Below, piece by piece: positions 1,078 to 58,779 of a DNA stretch of 64,000 bases. The DNA is from Promethearchaeota archaeon (lineage in GTDB: Archaea > Asgardarchaeota > Lokiarchaeia > Sigyniarchaeales > SOKP01). The notes under the pieces are model-generated. The model was not told the DNA's origin. It did no database searches and saw only the letters and a program-made list of their open reading frames with translations. The stretch is taken from contig JAHPZA010000010.1 of NCBI GenBank assembly GCA_019058445.1, positions 192,001-256,000 on the forward strand. Reading direction: 5' to 3'. Position 1 is the first letter of the stretch. Every line of letters starts with the position of its first letter. Position numbers and translations under genes: made by a program.

Positions 1078-2169
1078 TCAGTAATTAATATTCTCAAAGA
1101 CTCTTAGACTTTCTTCAATAACTTGATCCATATTATAATATTTATATTGGGCTAAACGACCAACAATAATAAGATTCTTAATCTTATCTGCTTCCTTTTT
1201 ATACATTTCAAATAGTCTATAATTTATATTTCGTGGTATGGGATAGAAAGGTTTTCCATTAGTGCATGGAAATTCTTTTACAATAGTTGTTTTAGAGTTT
1301 TTTTGACCAGTTGCATGCTTTATTTCAATAATTCTTGTAAATTCATAGTTATTTGGATAGTTAATTTGAACCCAATCCTGGTAATATTCTTTATCATAAT
1401 TTTCATGTTTAAATCTTAGAGATCTATATGGTAGCTTACCATATTTATAATTAAAGAATTCATCAATACGTCCCGTATAAATTAAATATTTATATTTGAT
1501 TTTATTTTTTATTTTCCAATAATTAGTATTTAATTTTATTTTGATATTCGAATTATTTAATAAATTTTGGAATAATTCATGATATCCATTAAGTGGCATA
1601 GCTTGTATTTTATCTGTAAAATATCGATCATCATTATTAATTCTAATAGGAATTCTTCCACAAACAGAAGGATCTAATTGTTTTGGATTTAATCCCCATT
1701 GTTTTATAGTATAATTTTTAAAAAATTTTTTATAAATTTCCCAACCAACTTTTGAAATTACCTCTTCTTCTGAATTTTGAGGATTTTCAATGTCAATCCT
1801 CTTTTTCTTCAAAAATTCTTTAGCTTGCTTTTCAGTTTTTAAATTAATTTTAAAAAATTTATTTAGTGTTTCCCTATTTATTGGAATTGGATATAATTCA
1901 CCATTCACATAAGTTCTTATTTTATATTCATATGGCCTCCATTTCGTAAATTTTGATAAGTAATTATATACTTTCTTTGAATTTGTTCTGAAATAATGAG
2001 GGCCATATTTATGTACTAAAATGCCTATATCATTATAATAGTCATAACAATTACCACCTAAATGATTCCTTTTATCTATTATTAAGACCTTTTTATCTAA
2101 CTGAGAACTAATGCGTTCTGCTAAAACTGATCCTGCGAAACCTGCACCAACAATTAAAAAATCATACAA
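1078..2169 (-). CDS. glf: UDP-galactopyranose mutase
   Basis: GAGFAG FAD motif, GGNCYD, HKYGPHYF, LPYRSL, GRLAQYKYYNMDQ; TTG start. Confidence 0.95.
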   Translation of the reverse strand: MYDFLIVGAGFAGSVLAERISSQLDKKVLIIDKRNHLGGNCYDYYNDIGILVHKYGPHYFRTNSKKVYNYLSKFTKWRPYEYKIRTYVNGELYPIPINRETLNKFFKINLKTEKQAKEFLKKKRIDIENPQNSEEEVISKVGWEIYKKFFKNYTIKQWGLNPKQLDPSVCGRIPIRINNDDRYFTDKIQAMPLNGYHELFQNLLNNSNIKIKLNTNYWKIKNKIKYKYLIYTGRIDEFFNYKYGKLPYRSLRFKHENYDKEYYQDWVQINYPNNYEFTRIIEIKHATGQKNSKTTIVKEFPCTNGKPFYPIPRNINYRLFEMYKKEADKIKNLIIVGRLAQYKYYNMDQVIEESLRVFENINY

Positions 2170-2170
2170 A

Positions 2171-3103
2171 TTACAAAAATTCTCTCTTTACAATTTCAAT
2201 TAAATCATTAGAATTATCAACATGAAATATTTTAGAACCTGATAATTTATGATACCAATTATAGGAATTGTATTTTAATTCAGCTCCTCTCATAGCTAAG
2301 ATTATATTTTTTCCGCCAAAATAACTAGTGAAAACGCAATTACCTCCTTGAACAGAAATAAATCTGTTACAATTTGCATAAATCATCATCTGAATTTGAT
2401 TATAGGATAAATCTTTATTATTTTTATTTAAATTTTGCATTGTAATAACATATGGAAATTGTTCTTTTAATATTGCAAAATCCTGAAAATTATGATCTCT
2501 TTGTTGATCTTCTGCTATATCTATTGAAGTTGGTCTATTATATATAATTTGATATTTTTTCTGAAGAATTTTAAATAATTCTTTTAAAATTTCAAGTGAA
2601 ATATAATTTACAGGTGGACCACTCCATTCAACAGTATATTTATTACCTATAACACAAATAGGATTATCCCATACAAAACGATTATTTTTATATATTTTTT
2701 TATATGGTGGAGGTTCCCACATTTTTTTATTAATTTTTTTTTTATGTATATGTCCAATTGGAAAACTTTTAACGTTTAAACATAATCTTTTTTTATCAAG
2801 TTCTGAATGATTTTTAGAGAAATAATATAAACATTTTGTATCTTTAACACCTCTAGTAAAAATTAATTTATTTCTTTTAAATAACCAATAAGCATATGGA
2901 ATAACTGCTATAAGTTCATATCCAAACTCTCCATAAAATTGTACATTTCTTCTTTTAAATATCTTCCAATAACTAAATATTAATGGTTTTATTATTATTC
3001 TAGGTAAATTTCTCCATAAAAATAAGATCTTCCATAAAAAAGTCCCAGGATTATTTTTATTAAAAATTAGTGTTTGTATCCTTTCAATTTTCCCTAATAT
3101 CAT
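2171..3103 (-). CDS. Hypothetical glycan-locus protein, possibly a GT-B-fold transferase
   Basis: 310-aa ORF adjacent to glf. GEFGYEL and FISVQGG motifs loosely resemble GT-B donor-binding segments; no firm family assignment. Confidence 0.5.
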   Translation of the reverse strand: MILGKIERIQTLIFNKNNPGTFLWKILFLWRNLPRIIIKPLIFSYWKIFKRRNVQFYGEFGYELIAVIPYAYWLFKRNKLIFTRGVKDTKCLYYFSKNHSELDKKRLCLNVKSFPIGHIHKKKINKKMWEPPPYKKIYKNNRFVWDNPICVIGNKYTVEWSGPPVNYISLEILKELFKILQKKYQIIYNRPTSIDIAEDQQRDHNFQDFAILKEQFPYVITMQNLNKNNKDLSYNQIQMMIYANCNRFISVQGGNCVFTSYFGGKNIILAMRGAELKYNSYNWYHKLSGSKIFHVDNSNDLIEIVKREFL

Positions 3104-8269: not shown

Positions 8270-9322
8270 TTAATTTATAATTAGATTTTTTATACCAATT
8301 ATTAATCCTAACCCCCAAGCGAATCCACGCATATGATGGAGCAATATTGTTTCTAAAAATGTTTTAATTTTATTTTTTTTAGAATAAGCAGCAGTTTGAT
8401 ATGCTGGAATAAGTCCATATATAAATAATAAAATGATTGTTATTAATATAAGCCAAAACCAAATAAATATTAAATTATTAAAAAGTAAATTCGAGAATAG
8501 GGGTAAAAGAAAAATATTATATAACAAAAACATGATAAATAACAAAATTCCTGAAGACATTAAAAATAAATAAAGAAAAGGTAAAATGTATATATCATAA
8601 GGAAAATACCAAGTAGAATTGAATTTATTACGGAGAGAAGTTTTAAAATGATGCTTTGAAACTCTACAATATGCCGTTCCGTCTCGGATACCTTTACGAA
8701 TCAATCTACAAAAACCACCATCTGCTACATGATATGTTATAGCATCATTTACTTTAAGGATTTTATAACCATTTTCAATAGCTATAAATGATATTTCAGC
8801 ATCTTCTCCGTAGACCCATTCAGGATCAAATCCATTAATTTCGTCTAATAGTTTTCTTCGAAACATTGAACAAGGACCACCAGCCCATACAACCTCCTCC
8901 TTTTTAATATTATTGTATCGTCTTGAGAATTCGAGACTTCTATAAATAGAACTAAATCTATCGTCAGTTCTAAATATTGTTGTACCCCCAACTATACCAA
9001 CTTTATCATCTCTAAAACCTTTTAATAGATTTTTAGTCCATAATGGATCTAATTCACAATCTCCATCCGTAAATGCTATAAATTTACCTGATGAGTTTTT
9101 ATAACCGAGATTTCTTGCATTGGAAATTCCTAATTTTTCTTTTATTAGTTTAATGGGATATTTTCTAATTATTTCAACGGTTCGGTCTTGAGAACCTCCA
9201 TCTATTACAATTATTTCTTTATTAGGATAGTCTTGATTTATAATTGACTCAATTGTCATTCCAATAGTATTCTCCATGTTTTTAACGCCAATTACATAAC
9301 TAACTAATGGTTCTTCGCTTAT
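8270..9322 (-). CDS. Glycosyltransferase family 2 with C-terminal TM helices; probable ATA start at 9322
   Basis: DGGS.D, FTDGDC, GED motifs. The frame extends 15 codons upstream of the ORF-track ATG, giving (I)SEEPLVSYVIGVKN, the conserved GT2 beta-1 strand, behind an AGGTG SD. Confidence 0.85.
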   Translation of the reverse strand: MSEEPLVSYVIGVKNMENTIGMTIESIINQDYPNKEIIVIDGGSQDRTVEIIRKYPIKLIKEKLGISNARNLGYKNSSGKFIAFTDGDCELDPLWTKNLLKGFRDDKVGIVGGTTIFRTDDRFSSIYRSLEFSRRYNNIKKEEVVWAGGPCSMFRRKLLDEINGFDPEWVYGEDAEISFIAIENGYKILKVNDAITYHVADGGFCRLIRKGIRDGTAYCRVSKHHFKTSLRNKFNSTWYFPYDIYILPFLYLFLMSSGILLFIMFLLYNIFLLPLFSNLLFNNLIFIWFWLILITIILLFIYGLIPAYQTAAYSKKNKIKTFLETILLHHMRGFAWGLGLIIGIKNLIIN

Positions 9323-9765
9323 TTAAAACACCTATTAGTATATTTTTAACATACTTTTGTTAATACTAAACAAATTTGATTTCCACGATGTTTCGTAAAA
9401 AAGGTATCCATTAATTTAACCTAACTCGACTGTAAATTGATTGACTATTTTCAATTCTTCCCTCTGAAATATTTTTTCTACATGACGGAATTCACATATA
9501 TCGGATGAAGTATATTTTTTCATCATGATTATGAGATATTTTGTAGATTCATACTTCAAAACCTCTATTTCTTAATTCTTTAACTATAGTTTATGTAATT
9601 TTATCAAGCTCTACAGACACAAGAAATTTCATCGTTTAATTAAAGATGTAAAGAATTATTGTATAATAATTTACTTGTGAGTATTATTAAATATTAATTT
9701 TTTGAATAAATAATTTTAGGGGGTTGATGATTTACACTTTTTAGATAAATTATATGAGAAAACAA

Positions 9766-13504: not shown

Positions 13505-14374
13505 TTAAAATATTTTTTTAAGATAATCCAATATAATAGGATATAACCTAAGGGTAATTTTTTTAGGGAATATTCTATTTATTTTTAACTTCTTCATTGT
13601 ATAAAATACTATACAAGAAGCAATTGCTTTTATAATTCGGAGTATTTGAACATAAGAAGTGCCATGTTGTCGTTTATATATCGTAATAGGAACCTCAGTA
13701 ATTCTAAAGTTTTTGTATGAAGCTTTAAACAATATTTCAGTACAAAACCCAAATCCAGTGTGAATCATGTCTTCAAATATTAGCTGACAGTCTCTTGTAA
13801 ATGCTCTATACCCACTTTGATTATTACCTACTTTTTGATTAAACACTAACCATAGGCAATTTCTAACAACAAATTCTCCAACTCGTGTATGTAAGGGTAC
13901 TCTATACTGACTTTTACCTAAATATCGTGAACCAACAACAATATCTGCTTTATTCTTAATTATAGGTTTAATCAGTTTAGGAATTTCCTCAGGATTATGT
14001 TGTCCATCTGAGTCCAATGTTATTATAATATCTCCTTTAGCTTGTTTGATTCCAGTTAATAATGCTGCTCCATACCCTCTGTTTTTGAAGTGTTTGATTA
14101 ATTTGATATTGCGATCCTCAATTTCATTTATTCTCTCAACACTATTATCAGATGATCCGTCATCGACTACAATTATTTCCTTTTTATGATGATTAGGAAT
14201 TTTAGAAATAACTTCCTTAATGGTGGTCTCTTCATTAAAAACGGGAATTATAACAGATACTAATAAATTATCGTCTATAAAAGAATCCGAATATTTATCT
14301 TCTATTATTTCTAATTTGAAATCTTGTTCGATATTTAGAGCCTTATTCTCTAACAATGATTCTTGGACATTCAT
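13505..14374 (-). CDS. GT2, dolichol/polyprenol-phosphate sugar synthase (DPM1-like)
   Basis: VSVIIPVFNEE, VVDDGSSD, NRGYGAAL, LDSDGQHNP, IVVGSRY, QSGYRAF, EVPI. Confidence 0.9.
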   Translation of the reverse strand: MNVQESLLENKALNIEQDFKLEIIEDKYSDSFIDDNLLVSVIIPVFNEETTIKEVISKIPNHHKKEIIVVDDGSSDNSVERINEIEDRNIKLIKHFKNRGYGAALLTGIKQAKGDIIITLDSDGQHNPEEIPKLIKPIIKNKADIVVGSRYLGKSQYRVPLHTRVGEFVVRNCLWLVFNQKVGNNQSGYRAFTRDCQLIFEDMIHTGFGFCTEILFKASYKNFRITEVPITIYKRQHGTSYVQILRIIKAIASCIVFYTMKKLKINRIFPKKITLRLYPIILDYLKKIF

Positions 14375-20274: not shown

Positions 20275-21021
20275 TCATTTGACTTTATTAATTTTTTGCG
20301 ATTTTATAAAATTGCTTGATTTTAATAATGTATCAAATTTACCTGCATCGGACCAAAACCCCTTAATAATTACTGATTTTGTTTTTCCATTTTTAATATA
20401 ATAATTATTAACATCTGTAATTTCTAATTCATCCCGTTTAGAATAACCAATCTCCTTATTTACCTTTTTTATCACATTAAAGATATTCTCATCATAAAAA
20501 TACAATCCTGTAACAGCGTAATTCGTTTTAGGCGATTTTGGTTTTTCCTCAATTGATTTTATTGTTCCGTCCTCATTTAATTCTGCAACACCAAATCGTT
20601 CTGGATCTTCTACTTCTTTTAGAAATAAATAACATTCGAAATCAGTTGAATTTTTAAATTCATAAAGTTCAGAATCAAATGAATCTTCGAAGATATTATC
20701 TCCTAATATTACTGCTACTTTATTTCCTTCTATTATCTTTCTGGTAAGGAACAATGCTTCGGCAATTCCGCCTGCTCTTTGCTGATACACGTAATTAAAA
20801 TGTGCCTGAAATTCGCTACCATCTCCGAGTAATCTGATAAAATCTCCTACACTTTCACCTCCTAAAACAATGGTGATATCGGAAATTCCTGAATTCGTCA
20901 GAGTTCTTATCACTTTATATATCATTGGCTCATCATAAACCGGTAATAAATGCTTATTCGTGACATTTGTTAATGGTGATAGTCTTGATCCAGTTCCACC
21001 TGCCAAAATAACGCCTTTGAT
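20275..21021 (-). CDS. rfbA: Glucose-1-phosphate thymidylyltransferase; probable ATC start at 21021
   Basis: (I)KGVILAGGTGSRLSPLT..NKHLLPVYD.PMI, LGDNIF, EEKP, ELEITD, WSDAG; GGTGG SD 6 nt before the ATC. Confidence 0.92.
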   Translation of the reverse strand: MKGVILAGGTGSRLSPLTNVTNKHLLPVYDEPMIYKVIRTLTNSGISDITIVLGGESVGDFIRLLGDGSEFQAHFNYVYQQRAGGIAEALFLTRKIIEGNKVAVILGDNIFEDSFDSELYEFKNSTDFECYLFLKEVEDPERFGVAELNEDGTIKSIEEKPKSPKTNYAVTGLYFYDENIFNVIKKVNKEIGYSKRDELEITDVNNYYIKNGKTKSVIIKGFWSDAGKFDTLLKSSNFIKSQKINKVK

Positions 21022-21159
21022 ATAAATCCACCGGAAAAATTATAAAAATTGTATAAGTTAACGTACTATAATTGTACTATAATATTTTATTAGTTTTTAA
21101 TTATTATTTTTAAGAAACTTCGCTTAATACTCAATATTCTAATGATATATAATATTATG

Positions 21160-22728
21160 TTAAGAGGGAAGCTCGTATAATGCTAATGTAATATCTAACC
21201 TATAATTATACTCTTTAATTTCCTCTAAATCATATTCATCAACAATCATATCGTCTGTTTTATCTTTAGGATCTCGATAGCTTTCCCAAAAAGTAATAAT
21301 CCAAATTCGAGTAATATTATCTTTAGTGATATCTTCAAAGAATTCCTCTATTTCATCTTCATCATATATTACTTCTTCAAAATTGTCGTCTAAGTCAAAA
21401 TTATTCAAGTCACTATAATATTCCATAACATCGGAGTAGGGTCCTCCAGGATAACATAAAATAATGATATCATGGTTTTTAAATTTCTTTTTGAGTTGTT
21501 TGATACAGCCATCCCAATCTGGCTTCTGTAGATAATAAGCTCTAAATAGGGGGTAAATTGAAATATTTGTTATTAAGAAGACTGCTATAATTGAATAGAG
21601 TAATCTTTTCGATAAATGTGCTCTAATTATTGTAAGAATCTTATTATTGCTTACTATTAAATTCTTATTTGAAAATAGATGATAAAGTCCAATAGCTTCA
21701 AGGATATGTATAGGAGTCAAGACGCCAATTAAATTTTTCGCAGTAAAAGAGTTTATCACAATAAATCCAATTATGATTGTAATTCCAAATAATAATACTG
21801 GTATTACGATTATAAAGAATAATAATTCTTTAGAATTGAAAGAATCTATATCTTTATAAGTAAAAATTAGTCCAATTACAGAAATAATCGATAGAATCAT
21901 CAATGGTATATTAAGTAATAACGTTAAAACAATTATTTTGTAGACATATGGATCATTAATATTTGAGGGAACGGGTCCTAAAAATAAATTGAAAGCCCAG
22001 TAGAAGAGATATATTAAATTTAATTCCCCTCCAGCATATCCATGAGCGCCTCCCAAGAAATCTTGAACAGCATAAGGTAACCAAGGAATATAACTTGCGA
22101 CAGTAATCAGTATGGTTAAAATAACTTTTCTATATATTACTTTTTCTTTTCTATTAAAAATTAGCAATCCAATTAATAGAATACCAAAATAAATAAATCC
22201 TATATAATGGGTATATATTAGAGTTGCTCCTGTTATACTAAGATAAAGATAATTCCTAAGCTTAATTGGATCTTTTATACAAAGTATCGCAAAATAGAGA
22301 CAAATTGTAAATAATAAATGAATTAAGGAATAAGCTCGAACTTCATTTGCGTAGAAAATGGAAAAAGGAGATAAAGAATAGAGAAAGATGACAATTAATC
22401 CCAGTTTTTCATCTTTAATTTCTTTACCAATTAAATATAAAACAGGAAAAGTTAGAATACTAAATAGAACAGATAACAATCTTGTGGAGAATACTGATTT
22501 TCCAAACAGTATAATCCATCCTCTTAAGATAAGGTAATACAATGGGGGGTGAATATCTCTTATAATGACATTCCAAAAGCTATTGTTTGGAGCACTCGCA
22601 ATAGCAATACTTATAGCCTCATCTTCCCATAACTGTTCAGAAATTATATTAATTACTCTTAGGTACGTGGTAATGAATAAGAGAATTAAAAAAAGATTTT
22701 TTGAATTAAATAAATCTTTATAGTTCAT
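21160..22728 (-). CDS. GT-C membrane glycosyltransferase (GT39/PMT_2-like)
   Basis: LWEDE, DIHPPLYY, RLLSVLFS, EVRAYS, THY, KPDW. ATG at 22728 is preferred over the upstream TTG. Confidence 0.85.
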   Translation of the reverse strand: MNYKDLFNSKNLFLILLFITTYLRVINIISEQLWEDEAISIAIASAPNNSFWNVIIRDIHPPLYYLILRGWIILFGKSVFSTRLLSVLFSILTFPVLYLIGKEIKDEKLGLIVIFLYSLSPFSIFYANEVRAYSLIHLLFTICLYFAILCIKDPIKLRNYLYLSITGATLIYTHYIGFIYFGILLIGLLIFNRKEKVIYRKVILTILITVASYIPWLPYAVQDFLGGAHGYAGGELNLIYLFYWAFNLFLGPVPSNINDPYVYKIIVLTLLLNIPLMILSIISVIGLIFTYKDIDSFNSKELLFFIIVIPVLLFGITIIIGFIVINSFTAKNLIGVLTPIHILEAIGLYHLFSNKNLIVSNNKILTIIRAHLSKRLLYSIIAVFLITNISIYPLFRAYYLQKPDWDGCIKQLKKKFKNHDIIILCYPGGPYSDVMEYYSDLNNFDLDDNFEEVIYDEDEIEEFFEDITKDNITRIWIITFWESYRDPKDKTDDMIVDEYDLEEIKEYNYRLDITLALYELPS

Positions 22729-22896
22729 TATATAACATTCGTACAATTTTGACTTATTATTATTACAACATTTCAATACTTATTAAAATTAAGTTTGTCT
22801 AGAACTAATAATTAATTTTTAAGATTTATCCTTTTATTAGATCTTAATTTTAGTAAATCCAATTCACTATTGACTTAATCTGCCCATTTTAGTTTT

Positions 22897-31165: not shown

Positions 31166-31535
31166 GCAGCAAAACCATTTTCGATAAAAAAGTCTTTCGT
31201 CAAAATTATTCTATAGAATTATTTAAAAAATATTAAATTTATTTAATTTATTCATACTTCTAATTTATTCGATTTTCTGATTCAAATAACTATTTATTAC
31301 TTCCATTATTAATGTTAATTAAGCTTTTATTAATATGAAGTTTTAGATGGTATTAAATTAATATTTAAAGTCTGATACTAATAGTATTAATAGAAAAGAT
31401 AAAATTAAAACGAATTTTAGGAGATTACGTTAACCGTATTATTTTAGATAATAAAATGGGTCTCAATCTTATACGAAAAATTAGAGAAATCAGAAGATAT
31501 GGTTTTATTTAACAATTGGTTAAGAGGGGAAAAGA

Positions 31536-32783
31536 ATTAAAGTTGCGATAATTCAACCTTATTATTTTAATATTTGGGAAGCAATTGGTCCTGCGTATAT
31601 AATTTCTTATTGTAAGAAAAATTATGAGGGTGCCCTCGATTTTAAATTCTTTCAAAGCTATTTCGATTCTGATAGTTATATCATAGAAAATTGTAAAGAT
31701 TGTGATATTGTCGGCTTTTCTTGCACTTCTCCAACTTTTAAGCATGGCGTAAAATTAGCGAATAACTTAAAAGAGTTAAATCCAAACATTAAAACTGTAT
31801 TTGGTGGATATCACGTATCTGCATTAAAAGATCTAATTACAGATGAATGTATCGATCAAATTGTTGTCGGAGAGGGAGAATATGCCTTTTTAGACATTCT
31901 TAATGGTAATAATAATCATATTGTATATGGAAAGCGTCTAGATTTCAAGGAACTTCCCTGGCCTGATCGGGATGCAATTAAAAACGAAAGAACTATTAAT
32001 CTTTGTGAAGAAATGGCGAATCAACGGATAACTGGATTTCAAGCAAATAGAGGGTGTCCTTTCAGATGTACATATTGCGCTGAAAGATGTATTACCGGTA
32101 TTATTAACAGGAATAATCCGATTAGATCGAGGAATTTGCCCGACCTTTTAAATGAAATTGAATTTGTTGAGAATAAATATAATTTGGACTATTTTAAATT
32201 TGTTGATGCAACTTTTGATGTATCATCGAAATATGTTACTGATTTTTGCAAGGAAAAAATAAAAAGAGATTTGACTATTGAATGGGAGTGCATGATTCAT
32301 GCTAGTATTGCTAAAGAAGAAATGTTTCCATGGTTAAAAAAGGCAAATTGCAATCAAATCAATGTTGGCTGTGAGAGTGGTAGTCCAAAGATTTTAAAAG
32401 AAATTAGAAAAGGGGTTTCAGTCGATAAGATAATTAAAGTTTTTGATTGGGGTAAAAAATACGGAATAAAACGACGAGCATTTTTTTTAATAGGTACTCC
32501 TTCAGAAACATTAGAGGATATTAAACTAACAGAGAAGCTTATAGAAAGAATAGATCCTGATTTTTTAGGTGTTACAATATTATGTCCATACCCTGGAAGT
32601 GATTATTATAATCATGAGAAAATGAAAGATATTGATTGGTCCTTTACTGATGAGTATTCTAATGATTTTTGGCATACAGAATATTTTTCCAATCAAGATC
32701 TAAAAAATATTCAAAAAGAGTTAACAGACAAATTTAAAGAAAGATTAGTCTGGCACCAAACAAAAATATTAGGAAATGAATGA
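31536..32783 (+). CDS. Cobalamin-binding radical SAM protein; probable ATT start at 31536
   Basis: The frame is open for 159 codons upstream of the ORF-track ATG: (I)KVAIIQP..., IVGFSCTS, FGGYHVS, VGEGE, LPWPDR, then RGCPFRCTYC and GCESGS. GAGGGG SD 6 nt upstream. Confidence 0.88.
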   Translation: MKVAIIQPYYFNIWEAIGPAYIISYCKKNYEGALDFKFFQSYFDSDSYIIENCKDCDIVGFSCTSPTFKHGVKLANNLKELNPNIKTVFGGYHVSALKDLITDECIDQIVVGEGEYAFLDILNGNNNHIVYGKRLDFKELPWPDRDAIKNERTINLCEEMANQRITGFQANRGCPFRCTYCAERCITGIINRNNPIRSRNLPDLLNEIEFVENKYNLDYFKFVDATFDVSSKYVTDFCKEKIKRDLTIEWECMIHASIAKEEMFPWLKKANCNQINVGCESGSPKILKEIRKGVSVDKIIKVFDWGKKYGIKRRAFFLIGTPSETLEDIKLTEKLIERIDPDFLGVTILCPYPGSDYYNHEKMKDIDWSFTDEYSNDFWHTEYFSNQDLKNIQKELTDKFKERLVWHQTKILGNE

Positions 32784-48540: not shown

Positions 48541-48722
48541 ATATTTACAATTAGTTAATTATCTAATAAATGAATTATTCATTTCTACTTTTACCTCTTC
48601 ATCATAAAACCTAAAAAAATCAAAAAATAATATGCTATTAAAATTTTCTAAAATACCTAAATAGAAAAGATTATTTGAAACTCTGTATTTATATATAGAA
48701 ATTATAGATTAAATGATTCTTC

Positions 48723-49667
48723 TTGATTAAAAAGTTAACAGAATTTGGATACGAGAAATATAAGAAAATTCGATATAAAATGAATAAGGTAATTGTGAAA
48801 AGAAAGTCAAGACATATCGAATTGGATGATATTATTACTGATTTAAAAAATATGGGTTTAAAACAAGGAGATATTTTATTGGTACATAGCTCATTGAAAA
48901 AAATAGGTTTTGTGAAAGGTGGTCCTAAAACAGTTATAGATGCGATGATAAAACTTCTTGGTCCAGAAGGTACCCTTGTTATTCCAACATTTCCATTACA
49001 TAAAACCATGTACGAGTTATGCACAATGGACAAGTATATATTTGATTACAAAACTACTCCGACAGGCTTAGGTGCAATTCCCGCAGAATTTCTGAAGTAT
49101 GAAGGTATTTATAGAAGTATTCATCCAACACATTCTATTTCTGCTATCGGAAGATATGCGAAACAAATTACTGAAACACATCATTTAGGTAATAAAACAT
49201 ATGGTGAAAATTCACCATGGGCAAAAGTTATTGAATTAGGCGGAAAAATTCTAGGAATTGGAATTGATTTAGCATGGACTACCCAGTATCACCATGTTGA
49301 AGATATAATGGGAGATGAATTTCCAGTTAAAGTAAAAATTGATGAAATCTTTAAGGTTAAATGTAAAATGGATAATGATGAGTTAATCGATGTAGCTGTA
49401 CAACCCTTAGATCCAGAGGTAGCAAAAACTAGGATAGAGAAGAACCCATTTATCAATAAATATTTCTGGGAAATATATGAAAAATTAGCGATTTTAAATA
49501 TAGGACAAATAGGAGAAGCTTCCTCCTGGTGGGTAGATGCAGATAGATTTTGTGAGATGTTAAAAGTATTAGCAAAGTTAGGAATAACAATATATTCAAC
49601 AGAAAAAGAGATAAAAAGCAAAAATCTTTACCCATATGAAATAATTAAAAATAAATTAATTGAATAA
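48723..49667 (+). CDS. AAC(3)/YokD-family N-acetyltransferase
   Basis: GDILLVHSSL, GPEGTLVIPTF, RSIHPTHS, YGENSP, T..HHVE. Confidence 0.9.
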   Translation: MIKKLTEFGYEKYKKIRYKMNKVIVKRKSRHIELDDIITDLKNMGLKQGDILLVHSSLKKIGFVKGGPKTVIDAMIKLLGPEGTLVIPTFPLHKTMYELCTMDKYIFDYKTTPTGLGAIPAEFLKYEGIYRSIHPTHSISAIGRYAKQITETHHLGNKTYGENSPWAKVIELGGKILGIGIDLAWTTQYHHVEDIMGDEFPVKVKIDEIFKVKCKMDNDELIDVAVQPLDPEVAKTRIEKNPFINKYFWEIYEKLAILNIGQIGEASSWWVDADRFCEMLKVLAKLGITIYSTEKEIKSKNLYPYEIIKNKLIE

Positions 49668-49714: not shown

Positions 49715-50404
49715 ATGAAAATTATGATAGCAGGAGCGAGTGGAGGAATTGGTCAATACTTGACTAAGGAATTTGATAGAGAAGAAAACGAATTAATACT
49801 AACATATAATACATCAAAAGAAAGGATTTATAAGACTGCTAAAGCACGATCTACTATTTTCAAATGTGATTTTACAAGAAAGGCAGAAGTTATAGATATT
49901 TTTTCTAAAATTGAATCACTAGATGTACTTATTAATGTAATGGGGTATGTAGAAAATAATTTAATATGCAAAATGGAAGAAAAAGAATGGGATCGGGTAA
50001 TCGACTCAAATCTAAAGACAGTCTTTTTTTCTTGTAGATATGGAGTTGAAAAAATAGTTGAATATGGGCATATAATTAATGTTTCAAGTGTTTTAGGATG
50101 TACAGGAATGATTGGTGCCACAAATTATGCAGCATCTAAAGGGGGGGTAGAATCTTTCACGAAATCATTTGCATTAGAATGCCTTCATGATAGAAAAGTT
50201 TTTGTTAATGCCATTGCTTTAGGATATTTTAAAATTGGAATGGGTTTAAATTTAAATGCAAAAATAGAACAAATGACTAAAGAAAGGATTCCTTTAAAGA
50301 TGTTTGGAGAGCCAGAGGAGATTTTTAAATTGATAAAATATATTATCTCATCCAGGTATTTAGCAGGGCAAATAATTCATTTAAATGGTGGTTTAAGAGT
50401 ATAA
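49715..50404 (+). CDS. SDR family oxidoreductase (FabG/3-oxoacyl reductase-like)
   Basis: GASGGIG, SS, YAASK, VNAIALG, IP..FG.PEE, GQIIHLNGG; AGGTGA SD. Confidence 0.88.
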   Translation: MKIMIAGASGGIGQYLTKEFDREENELILTYNTSKERIYKTAKARSTIFKCDFTRKAEVIDIFSKIESLDVLINVMGYVENNLICKMEEKEWDRVIDSNLKTVFFSCRYGVEKIVEYGHIINVSSVLGCTGMIGATNYAASKGGVESFTKSFALECLHDRKVFVNAIALGYFKIGMGLNLNAKIEQMTKERIPLKMFGEPEEIFKLIKYIISSRYLAGQIIHLNGGLRV

Positions 50405-57522: not shown

Positions 57523-58680
57523 TCATAAATTTGATTTTAAAAACCTATACATCTTATTTGATATAACTTCAATATCATAATTTAATTTAATTTCCTCTAG
57601 CGCATTATCTAAAATCTGATTTACCAGTTCACTGTTGTTTTTATAGTAGTTTAACTGCTTCAATAAATCATTCTCAATATTTAGATCATATAATAATCCT
57701 GTTACTCCATGTTCTATCAAATCTGTATTTCCTTGAACCTTTGAAGCAATTACAAAAGTTCTCGTTGCCATTGCCTCTAGAATCACATTAGATATTCCTT
57801 CTCCATATGAAGAGTTAATTAAAACGTCTAAGTTAGGATATATTTCTTCTTTTTGTTTTTCAAATCCGATTAAAAGTACATTCTCATTTAAATTGTAGTG
57901 GTGGATAAAACGTAGAATAATATCCTTTTCAGGACCCTCGCCATAAATTAGTAGTTTATCTTCAGGGTATTTAGAAAAATATTGTTTAAAGACCTGTAAT
58001 AAAAAATGTAAATTCTTGATTTTAGTCAAGCGACCTACAAAGCCAAAATTTATTCCACTATGCCTTTTTTTTTTCAATCCAATAAATCTCTTACTTTCAA
58101 TTCCATTTGATAATTTCAAGATTCTTTTTCGGGGAAAATTTAAGTTTATTAAATCTTCATACATTTTCTGATTTATAGGCCTCATAAAATTCAATCTCTT
58201 AAGTACAAACCATTTATAAAACTTAAACCAACTATAGTTGATGAGTTTAGCCATGAAATTCTGCTTCTCTGTTAGATGTACAATCCTAATATAGTTCTCG
58301 TAATCTGTTGGCATTTTCATTAAAATAGGTACTTTAAAAATAACACGGAAAATAAAGGGTGAAATTATATGGTTGTCATGCCCACTAAGATAAATTATAT
58401 TTATCCTTTCTTTCTTATGGACTTTTATCAATCGAAAAAACGACTTCAGGATAAAAGAAATAGTATCAAGTCTATAGCTTTTTAATTTGTGAAGCTGAAA
58501 AATTGTTGTTCTTTTTGTGAATGGTTCATATTCGGTATATTTAGTAATTAAAGTAATTTTTAATGGTTCAATTCTTTCAAAAGAAGGTAGCAATAATAAT
58601 AATTGATTTTGAATTCCGCCACTTAACAACTTTAATTCTTTATTTGAGTGTGTATATTCTATATAAAAACAGATATGTAT
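57523..58680 (-). CDS. Glycosyltransferase family 4; probable ATA start at 58680
   Basis: FVGRL..KN, EGISNVILEAMA. The frame extends 17 codons upstream to (I)HICFYIE, behind an AGGTGAT SD. Confidence 0.85.
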   Translation of the reverse strand: MHICFYIEYTHSNKELKLLSGGIQNQLLLLLPSFERIEPLKITLITKYTEYEPFTKRTTIFQLHKLKSYRLDTISFILKSFFRLIKVHKKERINIIYLSGHDNHIISPFIFRVIFKVPILMKMPTDYENYIRIVHLTEKQNFMAKLINYSWFKFYKWFVLKRLNFMRPINQKMYEDLINLNFPRKRILKLSNGIESKRFIGLKKKRHSGINFGFVGRLTKIKNLHFLLQVFKQYFSKYPEDKLLIYGEGPEKDIILRFIHHYNLNENVLLIGFEKQKEEIYPNLDVLINSSYGEGISNVILEAMATRTFVIASKVQGNTDLIEHGVTGLLYDLNIENDLLKQLNYYKNNSELVNQILDNALEEIKLNYDIEVISNKMYRFLKSNL

Positions 58681-58779
58681 TTACATCACCTGGTTAAATT
58701 TATGGGTCTTATTTTTAGTGCTATCATTCTTTTACAGTATTCTCTTTTTTTATTAAAAAATTTAAGAAGTCTTGAGAGA

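Follow-up and report, generated by a model that had tools for sequence, protein, structure and literature searches.

ATT, ATA and ATC as probable translation start codons behind Shine-Dalgarno sequences in an Asgard archaeon and its family

Introduction

Where does translation begin in a gene whose conserved N-terminal domain is preceded by neither ATG nor GTG nor TTG? The question is raised by a B12-binding radical SAM gene in a window of 64,000 nucleotides (the whole stretch of DNA analysed here, C10:192001-256000 of the source genome) from an Asgard archaeon. The window as a whole forms a large region for the biosynthesis of surface glycans, in which GT2 and GT4 glycosyltransferase genes, nucleotide-sugar genes and B12-radical-SAM genes are numerous. 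A preliminary description of the sequence had proposed that this gene and three others start at ATT, ATA or ATC (ATH) behind ordinary Shine-Dalgarno (SD) sequences and that this usage is systematic in the lineage.

The alternative initiators of NCBI translation table 11 include ATT, ATC, ATA and CTG, so ATH codons are formally allowed as starts, but they are treated as rare exceptions and annotated sporadically in prokaryotes. For E. coli, AUU starts have been confirmed in two genes only, infC and pcnB, and initiation from AUA, AUC or AUU reaches 1-2% of the level at AUG (doi 10.1101/063800). A 2020 review of archaeal initiation comments on the start regions of Ca. Prometheoarchaeum and describes no routine ATH initiation (PMC7531240). 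In the literature searched, outside of which most subscription journals lie, we found no paper on routine ATH initiation in Asgard archaea and none on lineage-wide ATH start use in archaea. What is known, then, are the ATH codons as listed initiators and the cases of infC and pcnB; their routine, family-level use in Asgard archaea would appear to be new, as no paper on it was found.

The start region of the radical SAM gene

The reading frame in question comprises 419 open codons (31524..32783, plus strand). An upstream TAA at 31521-23 is followed by GAG GGG AAA AGA and then by ATT(31536) AAA GTT GCG, and this succession of TAA, GAGGGG, ATT and a 159-codon extension with a B12 domain agrees with the earlier reading. 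The GAGG stands at a normalised distance of d=6 ahead of the ATT, the mode of ATG starts in this genome being d=7. Pfam profiles place B12-binding at residues 50-121 (PF02310, 51.8 bits) and Radical_SAM at residues 172-335 (PF04055, 75 bits) of the ATT-started protein (Table 1), both scores exceeding the cut-off; an N-terminal B12 domain is thus followed by a core with CxxxCxxC, as is characteristic of B12-binding radical SAM enzymes. Since the earliest in-frame ATG, GTG or TTG, the ATG at 32013, comes only 159 codons past the ATT, the entire B12 domain lies in the seemingly startless part, and a start at ATG 32013 would yield a 256-aa product without any of it. The expectation that standard gene callers truncate such proteins is in line with this loss and with the fact that Prodigal does not consider ATT, ATC or ATA starts (PMC2848648), for which reason ATH-started proteins would be truncated in most Asgard proteomes.

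Seven of seven metagenome homologues (48-67% identity) carry ATG at exactly the aligned codon, their ATG-AAA-GT. (MKVTLIQPYYFNIWE) being aligned to ATT-AAA-GTT ((I)KVAIIQPYYFNIWE) in the window. No ATH-bearing orthologue was present among the homologues found, and a search of 40 relatives for orthologues returned paralogues only, with at most 32% identity. Retention of ATH in independent genomes was accordingly not observed for the radical SAM gene, nor for the GT2 gene described below, whose few homologues have ATG as well. Paralogues of the radical SAM gene number 15 in the source genome and up to 30 in relatives.

Table 1. Coordinates of the four genes with proposed ATH starts and of their Shine-Dalgarno sequences (positions in the window; d, normalised distance)
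Feature	Position	Strand	Remarks
SD-like GAGGGG	31524..31529	+	6 nt upstream of ATT
ATT, proposed start of B12-binding radical SAM gene	31536..31538	+	
B12-binding radical SAM gene	31536..32783	+	415 aa + stop; CPFRCTYC cluster motif
ATG, earliest canonical in-frame start	32013..32015	+	159 codons past ATT
SD AGGTG	9329..9333	-	then TTTTAA, then ATA; d=6
GT2 glycosyltransferase gene	8270..9322	-	proposed ATA start 9322-9320; N-terminus (I)SEEPLVSYVIGVKN
SD GGTG	21029..21032	-	spacer GATTTAT (7 nt), then ATC; d=7
rmlA-like sugar-phosphate nucleotidyltransferase gene	20275..21021	-	proposed ATC start 21021-21019; N-terminus (M)KGVILAGGTGSRL
SD AGGTGAT	58685..58691	-	then GTAA, then ATA; 7-mer, d=6
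GT4 glycosyltransferase gene	57523..58680	-	proposed ATA start 58680-58678; N-terminus (M)HICFYIEY...

Three further genes of the window

The minus-strand sites at 9322, 21021 and 58680 are built as had been described. At all four sites a usable ATG, GTG or TTG is missing and the ATH codon follows the SD sequence at 6-7 nt (normalised), at the position of the homologues' Met1. The canonical start drawn on for comparison, AGGTGA-6nt-ATG at 49715, is present too. The beta1 strands of the GT2 enzyme and of the nucleotidyltransferase are beyond the reach of any canonical start; in the GT2 gene the earliest ATG (9277) comes after the beta1 motif LVSYVIGVKN. The sole orthologue of the GT2 gene (51% identity), found in genome G161, reads ATG-TCT-GAA-GAA (MSEE) where the window has ATA-AGC-GAA-GAA. 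It belongs to a 745-aa open frame (G161:C10, L124:1484-3700) with two tandem GT2 N-terminal domains, the second copy running from about L124:2695; this could reflect a gene fusion or else a further gene that likewise starts at a non-canonical codon.

For the rmlA-like gene, numerous independent studies supply 19 orthologues from Asgard archaea (72-82% identity), which have ATT (15), ATA (3) or GTT (1) at the position of the proposed start, behind (A/G)GTGA and 6 nt, and orthologues from outside the Asgard archaea (DPANN, methanogen and bacterial) have ATG or TTG. In the GTT-bearing orthologue (L014:601-603, from a MAG labelled Hodarchaeota) GGTGA lies upstream and no ATH is near; this may represent a GTT start, an error, or initiation at a GTG that follows three codons later. 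The nine homologues of the GT4 gene, two of them paralogues in the same genome, carry ATT (5) or ATG (4) at the aligned codon, followed in all nine by His, and the ATT-started ones have spacers of the type GGTG(A/T/G)T-TAA upstream.

Among the 49 ORFs of at least 150 codons in the window, an SD-led ATH ahead of the earliest canonical codon is confined to the four genes above, which bears out the rate of about four in 50 genes given before. The several TTG starts mentioned alongside are likewise apparent, at 1078-2187 (-), 21160-22779 (-) and 48717-49667 (+). One apparent TTG-started gene of the window opens with (L)YDFLIVGAGFA, an N-terminus of the usual FAD type.

Genome-wide distance between ATH codons and Shine-Dalgarno sequences

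The source genome (4.61 Mb, 10 contigs, 31% GC, 92.6% complete, 4.3% contamination) has genes whose nearest relatives come from MAGs labelled Promethearchaeota, Hodarchaeota and similar, i.e., from Asgard archaea. The assembly contains no 16S rRNA. All stop-to-stop ORFs were listed, and distances were measured to 5-mers or longer stretches of the anti-16S core AGGAGGTGA. The codons tested were in frame and no more than 15 codons away from the stop preceding them, and any ATG, GTG or TTG followed at a distance of at least 8 codons. All counts derive from custom ORF and SD heuristics, with no trained gene finder behind them.

The histogram of ATH-to-SD distances displayed one sharp peak at normalised d=7, with 45 sites against a background of about 5. 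ATG and TTG peak at d=7, too, and all remaining codons pooled give a flat distribution. Within d=6-8, 65 of 1858 ATH codons compared with 76 of 10766 other codons were SD-led (OR 5.1, p = 3.7e-19, Fisher test), so that the genome-wide test of SD enrichment suggested in the preliminary description turned out clearly positive; four sub-samples of the genome gave OR values of 2.8-8.2. ATA and ATT contribute roughly equal shares to the peak, and ATC is hardly enriched genome-wide (4 vs 2.7 background). The length of the SD sequences did not differ clearly (6-mers or longer before 41% of ATH vs 34% of ATG), and in codon tables for codons 1-40 the effect was lost in noise, so that the distance histogram was required to reveal it.

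Counted alike, the SD-led starts comprise about 50 ATH, about 185-255 ATG, 54-58 TTG and 11-13 GTG codons. ATH thereby accounts for approximately 13-17% of the strongly SD-led starts, about as much as TTG and more than GTG, TTG outnumbering GTG by a factor of about 4-5 in the SD-led set genome-wide. Related to the approximately 3,500 ORFs of at least 150 codons, SD-led ATH starts make up at least about 1.3%, a count that covers SD-led starts only. On this sequence evidence the first codon is, in all likelihood, ATT, ATA or ATC in some 50 genes, including the four of the window's glycan-biosynthesis cluster.

Genome-wide, 71 candidates for ATH starts were listed. Among them are many proteins with textbook N-termini, such as an FAD-binding DVVISGAGPSG, a GPN-loop GTAGSGKS and a CheY-like ILIVEDD, as well as Usp, a TFB zinc ribbon and an ATP-grasp protein (RLLEYESKE). 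For eight of ten further candidates scanned, position 1-2 of the Pfam profile aligns to residues 2-13 past the ATH, and in these the earliest canonical codon comes 14-99 codons further downstream. In eight close orthologues of the ATP-grasp gene one aligned site reads ATC, ATA, ATT, ATT, ATA, ATT, ATG and TTG, and more distant Asgard families have ATG, GTG or TTG. Such free exchange at a single position is as expected of functionally equivalent start codons, and it is the outcome of the proposed alignment of orthologues at Met1, where ATH, ATG and TTG replace one another. Altogether ATH is kept across independent genomes in 18 of 19 cases for the rmlA-like gene, 5 of 9 for GT4, 6 of 8 for ATP-grasp and 12 of 12 for aIF1.

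Distribution among Asgard families

The same SD test was applied to 800-kb samples of three further genomes (G161, G032 and G075) and has low power at this size. In G161, which belongs to another genus of the same family, 11 of 428 ATH vs 18 of 2233 other codons were SD-led (OR 3.2, p = 0.004), with the peak again at d=7. The claim of a systematic, lineage-level usage is therefore upheld by about 50 SD-led ATH starts in the source genome and their replication in a second genus of the family. No enrichment was detected in the sample of G032, from another family of the same order (ATH 2/250 vs other 13/1540, OR 0.9, p 1; 54 canonical SD-led starts), or in that of G075, from a distant Asgard family (ATH 5/340 vs other 33/3417, OR 1.5, n.s.); in samples of 800 kb this means a rate below a few percent and not absence. 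As the samples are small, they give no more than an indication that the source genome's family, and not the Asgard archaea at large, is characterised by the high ATH rate.

Alternative explanations

A start at a downstream ATG, GTG or TTG, with the upstream extensions being untranslated or remnants of start-loss pseudogenes, is highly unlikely. It is true that the radical SAM homologues have ATG where the window has ATT, which on its own looks like the loss of a start codon. However, the 159 codons stay open in DNA of 27% GC and are conserved like the remainder of the protein (67% identity to the homologues in the N-domain, 66% elsewhere), the products of downstream starts would be deprived of the first Rossmann strand or, in the radical SAM protein, of the B12 domain, and the optimally spaced SD sequence precedes the ATH and not the downstream codon. 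In the rmlA-like gene ATH has moreover been retained in 18 independent MAGs. The equal conservation and the interchange of ATH, ATG and TTG dispose of the start-loss pseudogene that the preliminary description had itself considered. The other objection considered there, that errors of sequencing or assembly turned ATG into ATH, deserves attention in a metagenome-assembled genome of the completeness and contamination given above, but is extremely improbable: a contig from another sample spans 31351-31565 and has the identical ATT at 31536, MAGs from numerous independent studies (18 MAGs for the rmlA-like gene) show these ATH codons again, and errors would not select an SD spacing of d=7.

ATH codons might also be reached by another route, either by termination and reinitiation after a short upstream ORF (uORF) or by a non-initiator tRNA, which would give an N-terminal Ile; as a general explanation we consider this unlikely. 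The radical SAM gene is preceded by a 13-codon uORF (31499-31540, +; ATG GTT TTA TTT AAC AAT TGG TTA AGA GGG GAA AAG AAT TAA) that encloses the SD sequence and whose TAA (31538-40) overlaps the ATT (A-ATT-AAA). In front of the GT4 gene an in-frame ATG-TAA (58686-58681, -) lies within the spacer between SD and start and directly abuts the ATA at 58680, and several GT4 homologues (L127-L129) have a TAA immediately 5' of the ATT. Against this route stand the absence of such a uORF from most of the 71 candidates and from the rmlA orthologues, the canonical initiator tRNA and the sharp peak at d=7, a hallmark of direct positioning by the SD sequence; furthermore, the ATG in AGGTGATG lies too near to the SD sequence for use. 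Coupling or occlusion by the uORF is possible at the radical SAM start, where coupled reinitiation is an option for this one gene because the uORF ends on the ATT. A uORF-coupled route may hence apply to single genes but cannot explain the general pattern.

Proposed mechanism and significance

Taking the sequence evidence together, ATT, ATA and, more rarely, ATC are very probably genuine start codons in this Asgard archaeon and its family. In the mechanism that we propose, a duplex with a GGTGA-type SD sequence at optimal spacing would position the 30S subunit, the ordinary initiator Met-tRNA (CAU) would pair with AUH in spite of the mismatch at the third codon position, and the protein would begin with Met where its homologues have Met1. 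The use of initiator tRNA and Met at these codons is suggested by analogy to infC, and the single sharp spacing optimum, identical to that of AUG, points to AUH being brought into the P site directly, under the guidance of the SD sequence. As AUH codons reach only 1-2% of AUG in E. coli, the starts described here are by analogy probably weaker than AUG and may tune expression, and four of them in one glycan cluster would fit such tuning. As to the cause, for which the preliminary description had named both, relaxed start-codon discrimination may be at work rather than selected weak starts.

The near-cognate AUH start behind an SD sequence resembles bacterial infC and E. coli pcnB, where it is read by the initiator tRNA. 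Unlike in E. coli with its two genes, about 50 genes and approximately 13-17% of the SD-led starts are concerned here. Animal mitochondria also use third-position near-cognates of AUG, namely AUA, AUU and AUC, as routine starts; they depend on a modified C34 in tRNA-Met and a changed code, whereas the archaeon has the standard code and an initiator tRNA gene with a normal CAU anticodon and stem. Eukaryotes differ in that they scan and use context instead of SD sequences, and in that their commonest near-cognate is CUG and not AUH.

If the proposed starts hold, annotation would be affected. The gene callers behind nearly all Asgard proteomes take no account of ATH starts, and dozens of proteins per genome would consequently be truncated or mis-started, distorting domain inventories and structure predictions in the very lineage from which the origin of eukaryotes is being reconstructed. 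The combination of routine near-cognate initiation, eukaryote-type factors and SD positioning would also offer a natural system for studying how the stringency of aIF1 and eIF1 is set and how it evolved, and the concentration of presumably weak starts in a surface-glycan cluster suggests a tuning of expression.

aIF1 and the stringency of start selection

Inspection of aIF1, recommended in the preliminary description, revealed that its own gene appears to start at ATT. The only copy of aIF1 (SUI1) in the genome lies outside the window (C10:8803-9120; L071:1426-1746) and has no canonical codon ahead of the zinc knuckle, its start region reading TGA AAC TAC AAA ATT AAA GAT AGT GAC ATT TGC CCT. 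All 12 orthologues from the same family have 'TGA, three codons, ATT AAA GA.' or a near variant. The start codon is TTG in the sister family, ATG in most other Asgard families and ATA in a few, and the families sampled in which aIF1 has TTG or ATG did not exhibit comparable ATH use in the samples tested. An SD-like GTGA precedes the ATT at a sub-optimal distance (d=10).

Thus a gene for a fidelity factor seems to have a near-cognate start of its own, as infC, encoding IF3, has an AUU. In eukaryotes near-cognate initiation is controlled by eIF1, which is autoregulated via the weak start context of its own mRNA. aIF1 is the homologue of eIF1, and by analogy a weak start on its mRNA would give the same logic of negative feedback. 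Because of these parallels to the AUU of infC and to the weak context of eIF1, we propose that the dosage of aIF1 in this family might be governed by a feedback loop acting on the AUU of the aIF1 gene itself, which might permit SD-assisted AUH initiation elsewhere; the tolerance of the family towards AUH could in this manner be linked to the AUU start of aIF1. The autoregulation remains putative in an archaeon that, unlike the bacterial hosts of infC, has initiation factors of the eukaryotic type (aIF1, aIF2). The far-reaching version, in which stringency has shifted in the whole family, AUU and AUA form a third regular start class as common as UUG, and the AUU of aIF1 is a tolerance-setting loop of the infC/eIF1 kind, is a tentative proposal, conceivable but short of being favoured.

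Initiator tRNA and further tRNA genes

The initiator tRNA, whose inspection had been recommended as well, was located by pattern search (C7, approximately 14171-14343). Its gene looks canonical, with the anticodon CAU, three G:C pairs in the anticodon stem and A1:U72, and hence offers no explanation of the ATH starts at the level of the tRNA sequence. The gene (C7:14171-14343) contains two introns, one after position 37/38 and one in the T-loop, and encodes the CCA. With aragorn five tRNAs were found, and 22 when introns were allowed, the low number being due to the introns that most tRNA genes of this genome carry. In intron mode the program additionally called a tRNA-Pyl (cta) at C9:655982-656074 and a tRNA-SeC (tca) at C1:27020-27126, which may be mis-read intron-bearing tRNAs.
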